A DNA stretch of 63,941 nucleotides, the filler included, from Craspedostauros australis (Eukaryota): the NCBI GenBank assembly GCA_030167865.1. It is 17 parts of 17 records of this genome, joined end to end, with 100 filler letters (N's around TTAATTAATTAA, not from the genome) between each part and the next. Parts side by side here need not be neighbours in the genome. Positions count along the whole stretch, not along the records: positions 1,737 to 14,557 come from JALAGF010002622.1; 16 more parts are not named here. One strand, given 5' to 3'. Numbering within the stretch: the first letter of the stretch is position 1; every line of letters starts with the position of its first letter. Below the pieces are notes generated by a model. That model had not been told where the DNA came from, did no database searches, and was given only the letters and a program-made list of their open reading frames with translations. This document shows positions 9,361 to 57,987 of this stretch, piece by piece. Position numbers and translations under genes: made by a program.

Positions 9361-9615
9361 TGTTGATACAACAGTTCAGTGTCGGTCCCCTACCCAGCTA
9401 TAAGCTGAAGGGTGGAACCAGAGCTGATGCTGTGTGATGTCAATGCTGTGTAATTCGATCGGATACTGTTTGTTTGATTTTATGAGTGGTCTGTGTTGGT
9501 TTTGGTTTGGCTGTTTTCTGCGTTCGTTGTGTTTTTCTCTGGCTCTGCGTCGTTTTGCGCCTTTGGGTCATTACGTGCGACGGACGGATGCTGACGATTG
9601 GCCAGTGCACCAACA
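9361..9615 (-). repeat. 3' LTR (255 bp)
   Basis: TG..CA termini, preceded on the sense strand by the PPT, and matching the 5' LTR remnant. Confidence 0.9.
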
Positions 9616-12600
9616 CACTCCTGTGATGCCAATAGAGCTTCCTTGTATGTCTTTGGCCTGTTGGCATCATATGCGTTTCGATTTAGGATGGCGTCCCTGA
9701 ATGCCCTGAATTTGGATCCCTGGAGCGGCTTCGTGAAGAAGTCGCCGATCATATCATCGGTAGGGCAGTATTTGACTCTGATCTCATTTCTGCTGATGCG
9801 GTCGTGAACGAAGAAGTATCGCATGCTGATGTGTCTGGTCCTTTTTCCGCTTGACTTGCGCCCGTTGTTTTCCAGCAGCATTGCGCTCTGGTTGTCTTGG
9901 TGAAGGGTGGATGGCTCGGTCTTGATCCCCTGTTCCTGTAGGAAATACCTTGTCCACAGCACCTGTGGCATCACATCATCGACAGCGACAAGCTCCGCTT
10001 CTGTCGAACTTTTGGTGTTGAGCTTTTGCTTGGATGATGTGGAGTAGATGGCGCCTGCTCCGGTGGACATGTGCGCCCCCGTGTGGCTCCGCATGTCGTT
10101 GTGGACGCCGAACGCACCGTCTACCCACCACTGTGTGTCCTCCAGGCTGGATCCACCAAGGGTGAGTGTCATGTCTTGCGTCGCTCGTAGGTATTTGATC
10201 GTGCGAGCAAGCTTCTTGTAGTCGTCTTCATCTGGGCTTTTGACCCTGGTACAGAGGAAGGACACAGCAGTTTGGATATCTGGTCTTGCGCGCTTGCTCA
10301 GGAAGAGGAGTTTGGCAACGATGTGGTGGAAGAGGTCCTTGGTGTCTTCGTCGAGTGCCTTTGGGTTTTCGTGGTTGATGTCGAAGAGATGGTTGGCTGC
10401 AGGCGTGACTGCATGTCCTCCCATGTTTGCTGGCACTCCTGCAAGAATACCACTGATGTATTCTGACATGTCGATTCTCACATGTCCTGGTTGTGTGTAG
10501 TCAAGCAACATGCCAAGGTAGTCATGCTGCTTGCCGCACTTGACGGTGAGCGGAGTTCGTTTTCCGTACGCCACATTCAGCATCTTGATTACATCGTCAA
10601 CCACCGATGGGTCCACATGTGAGATTTTCAAATCGTCAACATGCCATACGATGGTGCATTGTTTCCCTTTCACTGACTTGTTGGCCACACACCAGTCATA
10701 CGGATTGATGGTGAAGCCGTCAGCAACAAGGGTGGCGGTGAGATCCTTCCACCACTGTAGTGCCGCCTTCAACGTTCCATACAGCGCGCGCGTGAGTTTC
10801 ACGTATATTGCCGATTGTCCCCTCTTCTTGTGCACATATTCTTCGTACACTTCGGGTGCCACCTTGGCGAGCAGCTCAGCCATCCTTCCTTCAATCAGCA
10901 CGTGCACGATGTCTCCGTCGTCGAACTTGGTTTGCAGAAATGCGCCTGGCACATCCACTGTTGCAACGTCACGGTTCTCATGGGCATCGGTGACGCAAGT
11001 GAGCATGAGCCCAAGGAGAGACACAGTGGGAGAGCTGGTCTCTTCCTTGGTCATGTATAGTCGTTGTTTCCTGCCATCAGCGCAACCACGACCCTTGATG
11101 ACGCCGTTGCGTTTCTCTTTCAGGTACATCAGGTAGCGCAGAGCCTTGCAACGTTCATCATGAGAGAGCTCGTGCCAGTGTTTGGGTTCGAACCCTTCCA
11201 TTTCGTGGACCTGCTGCAATTCCTTGCTGATGGCGTCTTCGCCGCGTTCATGAAATTGTCGGAGCCCTTGCTTCCAGTTCATCTGTTCAGTGACGAACGT
11301 GCATGCTTCAATGTGGTTGTGTGTTTCATTGTTTGCATCTTCGGATAGGATTGTGATGGTAGCATGTGTGTCTCCACGACCGGTGTGATGCAGTTCGCTG
11401 TAGTCAATGCGTGGTCCCCGTCTCGTGGTCATGGGGTGTGTTGATGTCTGTTCTGGCGGCTGATGCGCATCGGGTTGTCCATTTCCAGCCTCGATATTCT
11501 CCTCGTCTGCCAGTTGTGGTGCATCATCAATGATTAGTGGCAGGTCCGCAATGATCGGTGGCAGGACATTTGCATCCTCAACACCATTATTGCTGTCGCC
11601 ATCATCATCATCATTGCCGTCGCTGTCATCTGAGCTGCCATCCGATTCGGTTCCGTTGGATGCCTCCGATTCGCTGTCGCTGCTCCCATCATCGCCGTCC
11701 TCGTCGTCGAGGCTGTCTTCGTCCGTGTCCTCGCTTGATTCTGATTCGCTGTCGGATTCACTGTCACTATCGCTGTCACTGTCACTGTCGTCATCATCAT
11801 CATCTTCATCATGGACAGGGTACAGCTCCACACCGCGCTGATAGGAGAACTTCAGGGTTTGATTCGTTTTTGCACGTTTCGCCATGCCATGGACATGGTC
11901 GATGACGGATTGGGGCATGGGTACTTCCGTCCACGATCTGCGGTGTAGTCGCATGCCAGTCTCCAGACTGATGAAGAGATAACCACCTTGGTCGTTTCCT
12001 GACGGCCTGACTGCGATAGCACCGACGGTTCGTGGCTGCATTGTGTTGTCATGCTGCTCGTGCGTTTGCACATAGCTGCCGAATTCAAGACGACAGTGTG
12101 CATTGTAATTCAGCTTGCGGCCCACGACTATTTCCGATGGGCTCATTCGCTTGCTGACCCCGTTCTGATGAGGGAACATGTTGAGCCAATACACAGCATG
12201 ATGTACCATCTCGATGATGAGGATGGGCGGGTAGTGTTTGAATGGAAGTGCGTGATACGTAGATCGCACGCGTTCCTTGATGGTTCGGATGTACCGTTCC
12301 ACTTCTGGTACGTGTTCGTCCCGCGATGTCACATTCACTCCAACACCTCGCTCGGCCAGTTCGCCACGTAGGGATTCGAATTGGTTGTCTGCCATGATGA
12401 TTGTGACACGGAACCCTCGCTGCTTGTAGAGTTGGATGATGTTGTGGAATTGTTTGGTGAGGACTGTGTTTGATGCAGAATCGAGTTTTGCGACTGTGCC
12501 GAACTTGATGTGCTTGGCGATGGAGACCAGGAACTTGATGCCATTGACAACCATGATGTCGACTGACAATTGTACGTTGCGATATTGCTGCATGATGTTC

Positions 12601-14441
12601 GCAGGAATCTGTGCGATCTCCGCTCGTACGGCTGGAGACACGTGTCTCACTGTTTTCCCTTTCATGGAAGCCACGTCTGGACCAAAAATGAGGTCAGCAG
12701 TTCGAATGTCCTTGGCGGTGATAGGACAGTCAGGGATCATGCCGTTGCGAACATATCTGATGAAAGTACGCGACGTGGGGCGACCAATACGCTGTTGTAG
12801 GGACCTGGCCAGTTTGGCCTGCGAATAGTCAAAAGACGAGAAGCTATTGCGGTTATCAGCTACTGTGTTGACCATGGTTGTTTCGTGGAGGTTGTTGGTG
12901 CTGCTGGTATCAAGGTAGAAAAGACCACCTGGGGATTCCTGGAAGGATTGCATGGACCCATCTTGTTTGTGCACTGTGAAGCGGTTGGTTCCAGTGCTGT
13001 CGTAGGTGACACGGAATCGACCCTTCACCTTGCTGAGGGAGAGGATGTTGGCGACCCCGTCTGGGTGATACCAGACATCCCCGTATCCTGGAAGAGTGCC
13101 GCGTTGATTGGTGGTGGCAGTCCCTGCATTGCAGTGGATGGTGAGACTGTTCTCAAGGGTGTGGATGTCCTTGAGGAGACGTCCGTTGCTGAAGACATCA
13201 ACTGTCGACTGGTTGTCGAGGAGGATCCAGTTCCTTGGGATGATGTTGGTTGCCTGGTTGAGTGTGTGGCTTGTGTGTTCATCCAGGTGCGCATGTAGGA
13301 ACACGAAGTCGTCATCGTTGTATCCATCATCAGCGTGCACAAGGACAGTGCCGTCACTGTGATACTTCGCATGACATTGATCCAGTGTGTGGTTGGTGCG
13401 GCCACATCGAGTGCATGCCTCTTTTCCACCTGGGTTGTTCGCGTTCACAAACGCCATGCCTGTGTCTTTTGGTGTGCTGATGCCCGGTACATTCCTTGGG
13501 TCCTTCGACCAGTGGCTGAGCATGGTGAGTGCTGCCACAAGTGTCTTGGGATACTGGTCATTGCCTTTGACCTGTTCATTGTGGAGGTCCTCGATGAGGG
13601 AACCAAACCTGCGGCGGTCGGAGCCCAGGATGAAGAGTACAGAAAGGAATCGCTGTCTGCCGTCGGCCTTGAGCACCTTCTTTTGCGCTGTGTTTGGGTT
13701 GTCGATGCCACGCTCCTTGGCGATGGCATTAATGATGCATTCCACGTGTGTGATGGAGGTTTCGACCGTGTCGTTCACATCGGCGAGGTTGACAAACGAT
13801 TCGTAGTAGTCTTGGACGGTCTGTCGGTGCTTCTGACGAAGTCCCATAAGCTCCTGCATGATCATGCATGCGGCCACTGTTCCTTGTTCGTGTGTCTGGT
13901 AGTTGAAGACGACGCCTTTGATGATCTTGATGAGTGCGGCGGTGTCTCGTGTGGTGGATGTTGTGGTGTAGTTGTCGGATTCCTGGATACGTGTCCGCAT
14001 GATGTCGGAACACTGTCCCCAGATGACCGCGTACATCTTCTGATAGTCGGTCTCGGCGTTGGTGAGGCGCGTGGTATAGAGTGCATAGCGTCTCTTCCAC
14101 TTGTCCTTCTCGATCTCAGATGCTCCTTCTGCATAGTCCTCAGGCTCTGTGATGGAGGGTGCTTCCATGTTCTCCACTGCCATGCTCACAACCGGTCCGT
14201 ACTGTGTTCCAGCATAGTTGGTGATGGCTTCGATGGTCTTTGTGAATTCGTCCACCTGCTTGGCACGTACGGCAGCACAGTCAAAGACATAGCCCTTGAG
14301 CTCGGGGCACACCCCTTCGAACTTGGCTGGCTTGACGAACGGATGGTTGCGATGTCCACGGTTGGGTTTGTTGTTGTTGTTGTTGGCGACGCCTTCTGCC
14401 TTCGGCTTCGTTGGCGCTGCCGGCTTCTTGTCGGTGCTCAT
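9480..14441 (-). CDS. Copia gag-pol polyprotein, 1653 aa, uninterrupted
   Basis: Zinc knuckle CTRCGRTNHTLDQC, protease WILLDNQSTVDVF, integrase LSVDIM..ADNQF..HVPEVER, RT DVPGAFL..LYGTLKAA..WHVDDL, RNase H WWVDGAF..SSTEAEL..HQDNQSA..GDFFTKPL. The order PR-IN-RT-RH is Copia. Confidence 0.96.
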   Translation of the reverse strand: MSTDKKPAAPTKPKAEGVANNNNNKPNRGHRNHPFVKPAKFEGVCPELKGYVFDCAAVRAKQVDEFTKTIEAITNYAGTQYGPVVSMAVENMEAPSITEPEDYAEGASEIEKDKWKRRYALYTTRLTNAETDYQKMYAVIWGQCSDIMRTRIQESDNYTTTSTTRDTAALIKIIKGVVFNYQTHEQGTVAACMIMQELMGLRQKHRQTVQDYYESFVNLADVNDTVETSITHVECIINAIAKERGIDNPNTAQKKVLKADGRQRFLSVLFILGSDRRRFGSLIEDLHNEQVKGNDQYPKTLVAALTMLSHWSKDPRNVPGISTPKDTGMAFVNANNPGGKEACTRCGRTNHTLDQCHAKYHSDGTVLVHADDGYNDDDFVFLHAHLDEHTSHTLNQATNIIPRNWILLDNQSTVDVFSNGRLLKDIHTLENSLTIHCNAGTATTNQRGTLPGYGDVWYHPDGVANILSLSKVKGRFRVTYDSTGTNRFTVHKQDGSMQSFQESPGGLFYLDTSSTNNLHETTMVNTVADNRNSFSSFDYSQAKLARSLQQRIGRPTSRTFIRYVRNGMIPDCPITAKDIRTADLIFGPDVASMKGKTVRHVSPAVRAEIAQIPANIMQQYRNVQLSVDIMVVNGIKFLVSIAKHIKFGTVAKLDSASNTVLTKQFHNIIQLYKQRGFRVTIIMADNQFESLRGELAERGVGVNVTSRDEHVPEVERYIRTIKERVRSTYHALPFKHYPPILIIEMVHHAVYWLNMFPHQNGVSKRMSPSEIVVGRKLNYNAHCRLEFGSYVQTHEQHDNTMQPRTVGAIAVRPSGNDQGGYLFISLETGMRLHRRSWTEVPMPQSVIDHVHGMAKRAKTNQTLKFSYQRGVELYPVHDEDDDDDDSDSDSDSDSESDSESESSEDTDEDSLDDEDGDDGSSDSESEASNGTESDGSSDDSDGNDDDDGDSNNGVEDANVLPPIIADLPLIIDDAPQLADEENIEAGNGQPDAHQPPEQTSTHPMTTRRGPRIDYSELHHTGRGDTHATITILSEDANNETHNHIEACTFVTEQMNWKQGLRQFHERGEDAISKELQQVHEMEGFEPKHWHELSHDERCKALRYLMYLKEKRNGVIKGRGCADGRKQRLYMTKEETSSPTVSLLGLMLTCVTDAHENRDVATVDVPGAFLQTKFDDGDIVHVLIEGRMAELLAKVAPEVYEEYVHKKRGQSAIYVKLTRALYGTLKAALQWWKDLTATLVADGFTINPYDWCVANKSVKGKQCTIVWHVDDLKISHVDPSVVDDVIKMLNVAYGKRTPLTVKCGKQHDYLGMLLDYTQPGHVRIDMSEYISGILAGVPANMGGHAVTPAANHLFDINHENPKALDEDTKDLFHHIVAKLLFLSKRARPDIQTAVSFLCTRVKSPDEDDYKKLARTIKYLRATQDMTLTLGGSSLEDTQWWVDGAFGVHNDMRSHTGAHMSTGAGAIYSTSSKQKLNTKSSTEAELVAVDDVMPQVLWTRYFLQEQGIKTEPSTLHQDNQSAMLLENNGRKSSGKRTRHISMRYFFVHDRISRNEIRVKYCPTDDMIGDFFTKPLQGSKFRAFRDAILNRNAYDANRPKTYKEALLASQECVGALANRQHPSVARNDPKAQNDAEPEKNTTNAENSQTKTNTDHS

Positions 14442-14457
14442 CGTTGTGATAGAGCTG

Positions 14458-14473
14458 AATCAAACAAACAGTA
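14458..14473 (-). promoter_or_regulatory. Primer-binding-site position, complementary to the element's own LTR rather than to a tRNA 3' end
   Basis: Sense sequence TACTGTTTGTTTGATT directly follows the 5' LTR and has no TGG start. Its complement lies in the LTR at 9464-9479. Confidence 0.8.
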
Positions 14474-14657
14474 TGTTGATACAACAGTTCAGTGTCGGTC
14501 CCCTACCCAGCTATAAGCTGAAGGGTGGAACCAGAGCTGATGCTGTGTGATGTCAATNNNNNNNNNNNNNNNNNNNNNNNNNNNNNNNNNNNNNNNNNNN
14601 NTTAATTAATTAANNNNNNNNNNNNNNNNNNNNNNNNNNNNNNNNNNNNNNNNNNNN

Positions 14658-17360
14658 ACCATCACGGCGATCTTGCTCGCCGAATGCAAGACGATCGATG
14701 CCATCCTTCGCGGCCGTAGATTGGTTGACCCAACCGACGAACTTCATGTCGCGATGCAGGCAACCAGACTGCTGAAGGGCGACGGCGGTTTCACCCCAAA
14801 GAACTTCAAGGGCAACAAACAGACGGGAGCACCCTCCACCAATCCGAGCAGCAATCCCAGCGTGGCACCAACCAGTTCGCCTACCAGCTCTCCCACATCG
14901 GCACCAACTGCGTCGACCGGAATCCCGACGAGCACACCGACTTCTGCACCAACCTCGCCACCAACTGGGGCACCAACTTCGAGGCCAACCGGGCAGCCAG
15001 TTGCCTCGGCGACCAGCAATCCAACCTCGTCACCGACCAACAAGCCAACAAGCAGACCAACCAGCAGACCAACTTCCATGCCGACCTCGGGGCCTACATC
15101 TGCACCAACGACCATCTCGTTTGCATTTGATTCCAGCATCTCCGTGGCCTGCGAGCCAGATGTTGTGCCGCCATGCTTTCCGCCGGAGGCATTCGAGCCG
15201 AAGACCATCATCTGCAATCCATCCAAGACATCGTGCCGCGAGGCCGTCGCTGCTGTTCGAAGCACACCAGGATTGCAGAATTACTTCGCATGCGCTGGCC
15301 TCTTGACCGAGGGGGATGCGCGCAAGCTATTCAATCGCTATGCGTCCAACCCTATGCTAGCTGAGGAGCTGACGCTATTGTCCGCCGCCGGCACCACTCT
15401 GCTCACAGCTCTCAGTGGTTATGACATCTACGACGCGTGCCAGAACGCCGGGGCTCCATGCTGTGCAGAGGATTATCACTGTACCAGCGCCGACGGTTAC
15501 GGTTTCATGACCATTGCCACCACTGCCTGCGTTGGGCCTGGAGCTTGCGCCGAGATGGGACTAAACCCATTGGTCCTGGATTCATCCTGTACCAGCGCAG
15601 GGGCATGCGCCGGCGTGAACTCTCTTTATGTTTCCTATTGCTATGGTCCTCACCCAACGTACGGCGTCACCTTCATTGGTCAACTGGCCTGCACTGATCC
15701 TATTTCCTGCACCCTCGTTGGCGATTATTCCTACGGAGACGTCATCATACAAAGCGGCGCCTGCGTTGGACCCTACGCCTGTTCGGGCGTTGGCTACCGC
15801 GGTGAACAGTACGGGCCCAGTCGTTCCCAGAGCCACGTCAGAATTGGGTCCAACGCATGCCGTGGTGAATATGCATGCACCGCAGCACATGCAAGCGGTT
15901 ACTACGACTGCACATGCACATCGTTGCCATCACCTGCGAAGATTCAGGGCAGCTTGAGCATCGGCGACAATGCCTGCACCGCAGACTACGCTTGCGCAGG
16001 ATTGGGATTCGGTGACTCAGTGACAACTGACATCATTGTGCCAGACTATGGCTGTGACAGCGACTACTCGTGCGAAGAATGCATGACGGAGACCAACTGC
16101 AACAGCAACGAAGTCTTCATTATCTACGATGCTGCTGCCGCCTGCCCCAAAGACAGCTGTGGTTATGCAACCGGCGAACTGGTCGATCAATTCTGCATCA
16201 ACAAAGACCAACTCCCAACAGATTGCCCAACTTTCGCCCCTACTCCGCTGGCAAGCGATACCCCAACGACGATTCCGACAGAGCAGCCTTCCGATCTGCC
16301 GACTTCTGTCCCAACAAGCCCCCCGACCATCAACAAGACCATCCTGCGGACCCTTTGCCTGAATGAGGCTGGGGAGGTTGCTGCGGGCTTCACCTCTGGA
16401 CCAGTCGTCCTCTGCGATGACGATGTGGGCACATGCACACAATTCGTCCAAGACATCGAGTCTCTCCCAAGCAACAAGGACAGGTTCGTGAAAAGCATCT
16501 TCGGATGCGATGACGACCAAGGCAGCCAGGCATCGCAGCAACAGGCGCAGGTGCGATTCGATCGCATTAAGAATGACCCCCAAGCAATCGCAGCCATCTT
16601 TACTGCTCTCGAAGGTGACGGCATCCTTCTCACAGCAAACGCTGCGAGCCTATCCACGCAATGCAGTGCTGTGGGTGGGACCTGCTGCCAAGGAACTCTC
16701 GGTTGCACTCTCGGGAGTGACATCATCACCATCACCCCAGACTCATGTGCAACCGATAATTCCTGTGAAGGGGTTTCAAAGGATACCATCATCCTTGGCA
16801 GTTGTCTGGGACCGAGTTCCTGCAAGAATCTTCGATCTTTTTCCAACCCTCCTGGCGCCACAGCCATCATTGGCTACCAGATCATCGGGCCAGCCGCATG
16901 CACCAGCACAAACAGCTGCGAGAACCTTGGGCAGAACATCTACGGCAACATCCGGATCCAAGGCGGAGGATGCAACGGTGTGGACGGCTGCAAAGACCTT
17001 GGAATCCGTGCTGCCCAGTCTACCAGTATCGCCACACCGACGCTTGCCAACATCGACGTGGGGAAAAACGCTTGTCAGGGACAACGCTCGTGTCAGAATG
17101 TCCACGCTGGCCTGGGCAAGACTATTGGCAGTATCACCATCGGCAGTGGTGCATGCTTGTCACGAGACAGCTGCAATGGTGTTGCCAACGCCAACTCGGC
17201 GGTTGATGATCTGGTCATCACGGCCAACACCTGCGCGCCTGCAAACAGCTGCAAGGATTGCGTGGCAACAGACATGTGCAGTGGCCCTTCTGGCCAGACC
17301 TACACCATCGACAGCCCATCCAACGACTGCCCTGGACGAAATGACGATGCATGCTCTTGA
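14658..17360 (+). CDS. Large extracellular protein with PTxxPT mucin-like repeats and Cys-rich GxxAC repeats, 5'-truncated
   Basis: Open frame of about 895 aa with RRL/RLL motifs near the N-terminus, PTS tracts and repeated I-G-x-x-A-C-x-G-x-x-A/S-C units in two homologous modules. Confidence 0.8.
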   Translation, partial: TITAILLAECKTIDAILRGRRLVDPTDELHVAMQATRLLKGDGGFTPKNFKGNKQTGAPSTNPSSNPSVAPTSSPTSSPTSAPTASTGIPTSTPTSAPTSPPTGAPTSRPTGQPVASATSNPTSSPTNKPTSRPTSRPTSMPTSGPTSAPTTISFAFDSSISVACEPDVVPPCFPPEAFEPKTIICNPSKTSCREAVAAVRSTPGLQNYFACAGLLTEGDARKLFNRYASNPMLAEELTLLSAAGTTLLTALSGYDIYDACQNAGAPCCAEDYHCTSADGYGFMTIATTACVGPGACAEMGLNPLVLDSSCTSAGACAGVNSLYVSYCYGPHPTYGVTFIGQLACTDPISCTLVGDYSYGDVIIQSGACVGPYACSGVGYRGEQYGPSRSQSHVRIGSNACRGEYACTAAHASGYYDCTCTSLPSPAKIQGSLSIGDNACTADYACAGLGFGDSVTTDIIVPDYGCDSDYSCEECMTETNCNSNEVFIIYDAAAACPKDSCGYATGELVDQFCINKDQLPTDCPTFAPTPLASDTPTTIPTEQPSDLPTSVPTSPPTINKTILRTLCLNEAGEVAAGFTSGPVVLCDDDVGTCTQFVQDIESLPSNKDRFVKSIFGCDDDQGSQASQQQAQVRFDRIKNDPQAIAAIFTALEGDGILLTANAASLSTQCSAVGGTCCQGTLGCTLGSDIITITPDSCATDNSCEGVSKDTIILGSCLGPSSCKNLRSFSNPPGATAIIGYQIIGPAACTSTNSCENLGQNIYGNIRIQGGGCNGVDGCKDLGIRAAQSTSIATPTLANIDVGKNACQGQRSCQNVHAGLGKTIGSITIGSGACLSRDSCNGVANANSAVDDLVITANTCAPANSCKDCVATDMCSGPSGQTYTIDSPSNDCPGRNDDACS

Positions 17361-20800: not shown

Positions 20801-21000
20801 TCAAAAGATGCCCTATTTAGGGCACCTTTTTCAAAACGTGCTCTAAATAGGGCACCTTTTCAAAACGTGCCCTATTTAGGGCATCTTTTCAAAACGTGCT
20901 CTAAATAGGGCACCTTTTCAAAACGTGCTCTAAATAGGGCATCTTTTCAAAACGTGCTCTAAATAGGGCACCTTTTCAAAACGTGCCCTATTTAGGGCAC
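20801..21000. repeat. Seven-unit tandem array (~29-bp period) of an 18-bp near-palindrome; probable subterminal repeats of a DNA transposon
   Basis: Units GTGC(C/T)CTA(TT/AA)TAGGGCA(C/T) are separated by a near-constant CTTTTCAAAAC linker, about 190-260 bp upstream of a transposase-like ORF. Confidence 0.85.
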
Positions 21001-26342: not shown

Positions 26343-29007
<2,665 letters not shown>

Positions 29008-30078: not shown

Positions 30079-31476
<1,398 letters not shown>

Positions 31477-31576: not shown

Positions 31577-32341
<765 letters not shown>

Positions 32342-57914: not shown

Positions 57915-57987
57915 TTGCGTCCTGACGCAAACTTATTTCGGGGTTGCGTCAGGACGCAAGAAAAGCCGTTTTTGCGTCCTGACGCAA
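57915..57987. repeat. Three copies of the 16-bp near-palindrome TTGCGTC-(CT/AG)-GACGCAA
   Basis: Copies start at 57915, 57944 and 57972; the middle copy is inverted. Confidence 0.85.

Follow-up and report, generated by a model that had tools for sequence, protein, structure and literature searches.

Priming of reverse transcription by the 5' end of an element's own RNA has, to our knowledge, been demonstrated by experiment for Tf1-type Gypsy elements alone. In Tf1 the transcript's 11 initial bases pair with the primer-binding site (PBS), and the RNase H cleavage falls between bases 11 and 12 (PMC7175516). Among Copia elements, in silico work predicts self-priming for the plant Ty1/copia lineage TAR, with Houba and Osr-1 (PMC6317226, citing Capy 2005), while the fungal GalEa elements carry a "conserved hairpin site" instead of a PBS; this is a local palindrome, and the authors did not find a complement in the long terminal repeat (LTR) or its U5 part (PMC5445492). 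The diatom CoDi Copia elements (Maumus et al. 2009) are known for short LTRs (163 bp in Blackbeard) and for the order protease, integrase, reverse transcriptase, RNase H (PR-IN-RT-RH; PMC2806351). Here we describe a Copia element in a 63,941-nt stretch of DNA (the window) from the Craspedostauros australis assembly GCA_030167865.1, where it sits on the minus strand of the contig at 1737-14557. Its sequence, together with that of its relatives, indicates that minus-strand DNA synthesis is quite probably primed in a Tf1-like manner, by the 5' end of the element's own RNA, in a Ty1/copia element of an apparently diatom lineage.

The features that bear on priming are the following.

14458..14474, minus strand: putative 17-nt PBS with which the RNA of the element itself would pair; it begins with the last LTR base (14474) and lacks TGG
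9463..9479, minus strand: self-primer motif as found in the 3' LTR, fully complementary to the PBS; it starts directly behind the stop codon of pol, 119 nt ahead of the LTR end
9483..9485, minus strand: initiator-like TCA triplet, separated by 3 nt from the downstream self-primer motif
9361..9615, minus strand: 3' LTR, 255 nt, its end given by the repeat and its start placed from the family AGGAGTG/TGTTGR junction
~9615-9480 and ~9479-9361, minus strand: U3 and R-U5, respectively, within the 3' LTR
14474..14557, minus strand: last 84 nt (U5 side) of the 5' LTR, a 100% repeat of 9361-9444, the remainder cut by the contig end
9616..9625, minus strand: region of the polypurine tract, CACAGGAGTG, directly preceding the 3' LTR, with AGGAGTG conserved before TGTTGR

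On the sense strand the LTR ends with ..ATCAACA and is followed by TACTGTTTGTTTGATT (14473-14458), then by 16 nt, and then by the gag ATG at 14441. With the last LTR base included, the inverted pair 9479-9463 / 14474-14458 is 17 nt long and 100% complementary, so that the perfect 17-nt match claimed in a preliminary description of this DNA was confirmed at 17 of 17 positions, as was the absence of TGG after the LTR in this element. When the window was searched for the 17-mer with up to 2 mismatches, just these two sites were returned, and none appeared in 100 dinucleotide shuffles. The predicted energy of the duplex between the PBS and 9479-9463 is -21.3 kcal/mol.

Placing the motif within the LTR depended on the relatives. 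The direct repeat visible on the contig measures 84 nt and is 100% identical (9361-9444 = 14474-14557), its 5' copy halting at 14557 because the contig ends there, and 19 nt separate the repeated stretch from the motif upstream of it. In 32 relatives, as in the C. australis element, AGGAGTG is directly followed by TGTTGR, and where a relative has both LTRs complete (L057, L002) the repeat begins at this same junction, which in C. australis reads CACAGGAGTG/TGTTGG at 9625-9616/9615. The 3' LTR is therefore 9615-9361, with termini TGTTGG..CAACA and with the motif 136 nt inside it. An LTR of 82-84 nt starting with the TG at 9442 was rejected, given that the family junction falls at 9616/9615. The earlier statement that the LTR contains the complement of the PBS thus stands by homology with the relatives but cannot be seen from the repeat itself. 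U3 measures 136 nt in this element and 90-393 nt in the relatives; it is overlapped by the final ~45 pol codons, a non-conserved tail, and the stop codon lies between the TCA and the self-primer motif. Only 84 nt of the 5' LTR are present, which puts its start and the target-site duplication out of view; the contig lacks some 171 nt of this LTR, including the second occurrence of the motif, as well as the 5' flank. The element, described at first as intact, can therefore not be called so, although its open reading frame (ORF) is open throughout.

The evidence that carries the argument comes from the wider family. A protein search identified hundreds of relatives at ~40-60% identity, of which a single one is named, from the diatom Fragilaria crotonensis, and an Atlas search gave further leads to Bacillariophyta. 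Metagenome contigs were scanned with a 20-sequence alignment, which yielded 77 loci (from the best 80 of 533 confirmed matches, 35-62% protein identity); these, together with the C. australis element, formed a test set of 78 sequences, each of which was searched for perfect inverted pairs and then inspected for their context. Both sites are held by 46 of the 78, and in all 46 the pairing is perfect over 14-17 nt, with 39 different arm sequences. The layout is constant: a 14-17-nt arm follows YCA (Y, C or T) in the LTR, and the arm's perfect complement lies 49-165 nt further downstream, in most cases 101-132 nt, its start coinciding with the LTR end (..CAACA) or falling 1 nt inside it; this range includes the 119 nt of the C. 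australis element. The remaining 32 loci are fragments, none of which spans both the pre-gag region and the R part of the LTR; L054, the only one to reach the start of gag, does so with 75 nt upstream and without a 3' LTR. Since these 32 loci lack one or other site, the count stands at 46 of 46 testable loci, and the complementarity, whose loss in related elements had been named in the preliminary description as telling against self-priming, is retained throughout. Across the loci (345 kb) there were 55 perfect inverted pairs of at least 13 nt, compared with 0-5 in 10 block shuffles. A scan of viral contigs with the family alignment found no relative.

Paired sites in these elements have changed together. 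Anchored at the LTR end, 14 positions gave 546 Watson-Crick pairs in 546 cells, with 0 G-U pairs and 2-4 pair types at every position; with the register shifted by 1-2 nt, 181-233 of the 546 cells pair. It should be kept in mind that the arms were found through an exact-complement search, so that the zero mismatch is partly by construction; that the pair lies at exactly the same place in every testable locus is not. When 30 relatives were aligned with MAFFT and the alignment was left unedited, the share of paired cells was 93.3%, 14 of the 15 pairs had changed on both sides, and one-sided changes numbered 0. The same alignment held 146 doubly changed cells, versus 47 in shuffles; none of 500 shuffles reached the observed pairing or covariation score, and slid controls paired at 38-51%. 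This fixed-column count is imperfect, as 6 of the 30 rows are gapped or out of register owing to the variation in arm length, which is why the pairs were also counted from the LTR end. Single substitutions, each with its mirror change, distinguish close relatives (L056/L057, L031/L032, and L035 versus L002), and a minimum spanning tree of the 37 distinct 14-mers comprises 157 substitutions, each of them mirrored in the partner arm. The check for covariation between PBS and LTR motif that had been proposed with the preliminary description was strongly positive (46/46 paired, 39 sequences, 14/15 pairs two-sided), and its suggestion of Tf1-like self-priming rather than tRNA priming is supported by this pattern. 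For the family as a whole the self-priming interpretation is strongly supported by the covariation.

The surroundings of the two arms were also informative. TGG within 6 nt after the LTR end was found in 0 of the 46 elements. Where an ATG for gag could be recognised (42 elements), it lay 1-34 nt after the arm in 31, often no more than 1-20 nt, and merely 1-3 nt after it in L007, L013, L038 and L056; with gag so near the arm there is no room for another PBS. At the other end, 45 elements (44 relatives and the C. australis element) could be scored for the start of the arm, which directly follows a CA (0 nt) in 36 and takes in the A in 8; the triplet before the arm is TCA in 37, CCA in 7 and GCA in 1. 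An initiator-like motif of diatoms, TCAH(+1)W, has been proposed (PMC4686930), and the edge of the arm coincides with its +1, so that the arm edge probably marks the 5' end of the RNA. Contig ends and poly(A) tails across the 77 loci, taken as a proxy for RNA ends, provided nothing informative.

Taken together with what is known of Tf1, these features suggest a replication cycle in four steps. Transcription would start in the LTR at or just after the YCA initiator-like site. The first 14-17 nt of the RNA would then fold back over ~100-120 nt of R-U5 and pair from the last base of the 5' LTR, the complementarity of this step being observed and its fold predicted. By analogy with Tf1, RNase H would cleave the RNA where the duplex ends on its inner side, and the 3' OH so released would be extended through U5-R. 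Finally, plus-strand synthesis would copy the PBS back from the primer, as it does in retroviral and Tf1 replication, and PBS and LTR motif would be re-matched in each cycle. Rewriting of the PBS from the primer would explain why the pairing is always perfect, why it lacks G-U pairs, and why it ends exactly at the YCA site.

Several points weigh against this reading. In the C. australis element itself the TCA that had been noted near the motif is indeed present (9485-9483), but its A at 9483 sits 3-4 nt before the duplex, which begins 3 nt (the pol stop codon TAA) after the TCA, the sole such case among the 45 scored elements and unlike the other 44. Transcription from the usual place would leave the RNA with 3 bases at its 5' end that are unpaired and have no counterpart in the PBS; the offset may be due to a start site that has moved or to an alteration of this particular copy. 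For the same element, the 5' LTR copy of the motif lies outside the assembly, beyond the contig end. Transcript start, RNase H cut and primer-linked cDNA are steps that we infer for every member of the family, and the family's RNase H would need a special activity that is known for Tf1, the cutting of RNA paired with RNA. The arms are A+T-rich. The sample comes from a single scan, of whose 533 matches it comprises the best 80, and among its loci are many collapsed or circularly permuted metagenome assemblies; the two arms are separated by a mere ~110 nt of one contig, however, which makes it unlikely that assembly created them. A tRNA scan of the window returned 0 genes, which confines the comparison with host tRNAs to the window.

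Other roles for the pairing have to be weighed against priming, and the one that survives best is structural. The arms could form a structural RNA element (a 5' hairpin, a 5'-3' cyclisation, or a dimerisation or packaging signal) while some other primer serves reverse transcription, and the cyclisation (CYC) sequences of yeast Ty1 offer a parallel. RNA folding accords with this: in 10 of 10 relatives the 5' arm pairs with the PBS in the minimum-energy structure and closes a multibranch R-U5 domain (z -2.5 to -6.3), the R-U5 of the C. australis element folded by itself being weak (z -1.8), and since the 3' LTR carries the motif as well, pairing in trans or across the RNA would be possible. A stem under selection, however, normally passes through G-U intermediates and shows occasional mismatches, whereas here there are neither G-U pairs nor one-sided changes. 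Moreover, the paired site stands exactly at the place required of a PBS, overlapping the last LTR base, and neither a TGG nor a second candidate site fits before gag. We consider this explanation unlikely. Beside the primer duplex, a CTGGTTT.. sequence that follows the 5' arm is common to many relatives (L005, L029, L060, L072 and others) and folds as a small hairpin, which may be the counterpart of the U5-IR-type stem needed by Tf1.

A role of the inverted repeat at the level of DNA or in transcription, as a promoter, a terminator or an aid to the integrase or to transfer rather than in priming, fits the position of the arms, one abutting the putative initiator and the other the LTR end; a protein-binding or promoter element would keep its sequence, however, whereas here complementarity alone has been kept, and such a role appears very improbable. 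Internal priming by tRNA-Met is familiar from Drosophila copia and from Ty5. That a host tRNA, half-tRNA or tRNA fragment primes the family and the LTR match is incidental can be set aside as barely credible, for although half-tRNA PBSs are known in Copia lineages (PMC6317226) and the tRNA comparison has the narrow scope given above, there is no TGG in the 46 elements, chance complementarity of 14-17 nt is excluded, and the PBS differs at every position among the 39 arm sequences while always matching its own LTR, which conserved host tRNAs cannot track. Priming by the element's own RNA is thus the explanation that we carry into the comparison with described elements.

For that comparison the class of the element matters, and it was determined from its coding capacity.

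9480..14441, minus strand: gag-pol polyprotein ORF, 1653 amino acids, zero internal stops, stop codon TAA at 9482-9480
10440..11159, minus strand: Copia-type reverse transcriptase (RVT_2), Pfam profile match
11802..12824, minus strand: integrase region, residues 540-880, from predicted structure, upstream of the reverse transcriptase

The match to RVT_2 (PF07727) covers residues 1095-1334 (E 1.3e-10, 41.7 bits against a cut-off of 31.6), and a gag zinc knuckle is matched weakly at residues 342-367 (Pfam). For the ~500 amino acids between gag and an acidic linker, where protease and integrase are expected, Pfam and PDB searches with the single sequence and with a profile gave chance-level matches only. 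An AlphaFold2 model of residues 540-880, built from 19 family sequences (predicted local distance difference test score, pLDDT, 77.7), was therefore of particular use: its top Foldseek matches are the integrases of prototype foamy virus (PFV), Rous sarcoma virus (RSV) and human immunodeficiency virus (HIV), at E 7e-9 to 1e-7 and prob 1.00. On this modelled structure the region is an integrase, encoded upstream of the reverse transcriptase and RNase H; the ORF terminates ~70 amino acids beyond the RNase H region. Integrase upstream of the reverse transcriptase is the Copia gene order. The element is a Ty1/copia-type LTR retrotransposon, in agreement with its original classification as Copia, and the known relatives of the lineage point to diatoms. 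The protease-integrase stretch (residues 380-880; 11802-13304, minus strand) is in itself unusual, being too divergent for sequence matches in Pfam or PDB, with its integrase fold visible in the predicted structure only, and the motif at the position of the protease is conserved in the family consensus as LLDNQST, compared with D[ST]G.

Set beside Tf1 and Tf2 of Schizosaccharomyces pombe and the Tf1/sushi group, the family is similar in that the PBS next to the 5' LTR complements the start of its own (here putative) transcript and in that a fold-back of R-U5 is predicted. The Tf1/sushi elements are Ty3/gypsy chromoviruses with the order RT-RH-IN; the C. australis element has an RVT_2 reverse transcriptase and an integrase upstream of it, and so falls outside that clade, although its sequence suggests that it works like Tf1. 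Unlike the 11 bases of Tf1, the duplex of the present family is 14-17 nt long, A+T-rich and takes in the last LTR base, features that are known from sequence alone. With the TAR lineage, as it is described in the source cited above, the family shares its Copia type, the lack of a tRNA PBS and the prediction of self-priming; TAR, compared here by description only, belongs to land plants, in contrast to a family with one diatom-named relative and a very divergent protease and integrase. GalEa, as reported, is likewise a Copia element without a tRNA-type PBS that has a conserved pairing feature at the PBS position, but there the feature is a local hairpin, whereas here the partner belongs to the LTR, at the putative start of the transcript and ~110 nt upstream. 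Like the CoDi elements, whose groups were also compared by published description only, the family is linked to diatoms and has short LTRs and the order PR-IN-RT-RH.

It had been suspected that self-priming might already have been proposed for some diatom Copia families. This was not borne out by a search of the literature, in which the prediction that came to light was that for the plant TAR elements (PMC6317226). The main text of PMC2806351 mentions neither a PBS (in this sense) nor tRNA, polypurine tract or priming. Searches of the open full-text literature on priming and the PBS turned up no description of self-priming in diatom or stramenopile Copia, and papers on transposable elements of diatoms or algae that were inspected lack such terms; subscription journals and Repbase notes fall outside this scope, and an earlier report is possible.

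As for the remainder of the window, it is a chain of ~20 short contigs whose joints each consist of N44, a 12-nt linker with stops in all frames, and N44 (N runs 1637-62833). As these joints are artificial, features are not readable across them, and the one that bounds the element is as follows.

14558..14657, no strand: assembly joint (N44 + 12-nt linker + N44), N run beginning at 14558, with an unrelated contig beyond

No further copy or solo LTR of the element was found within the window. On the unrelated neighbouring contig, 14673-17360 (plus strand) holds an 895-amino-acid ORF in which Pro/Thr/Ser-rich repeats with a 12-nt period are followed by Cys-rich repeats; its product looks like a secreted or surface protein. 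A 540-nt repeat is present at 26343-26882, 30937-31476 and 31577-32116, where the stretch at the start of one contig is the exact reverse complement of the end of another contig and of the start of the next one. Exact 540-nt reverse complements at contig ends indicate redundant or overlapping ends; the peptide encoded there is presumably glyceraldehyde-3-phosphate dehydrogenase (GAPDH), judging by its motif. Clusters of short palindromes or inverted repeats occur at 20803-20995 and 57915-57987, with arms of 13-18 nt and 16 nt, respectively, and 2-4 repeats.

The mechanism proposed here is of a known kind, and the lineage in which it is placed is new. On balance we favour the view that a diverse, apparently diatom Copia lineage has abandoned tRNA priming, using as primer its own first 14-17 nt with a PBS that is rewritten in each cycle, and that this arose independently of Tf1/sushi and of TAR. 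Annotation would be affected, as LTR pipelines that require a PBS matching a tRNA would drop the family and undercount diatom Copia elements; the LTRdigest filter is an example of such a requirement (PMC7466962). If our reading is true, the lineage would be freed from host tRNAs and from any defence aimed at tRNA-type PBSs. Small RNAs that target the PBS occur in other organisms, and escape from them by this family is speculation. The edge of the complementarity would record the start of transcription to the nucleotide, and, if the arm edge is the RNA 5' end, the family supplies dozens of independent readouts of initiator use. The 39 primer/PBS pairs also form a natural mutational series for what reverse transcriptase and RNase H recognise. 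With 39 co-varying pairs in a second Copia lineage, from another eukaryotic supergroup, self-priming would be a strategy that arose or persisted repeatedly.

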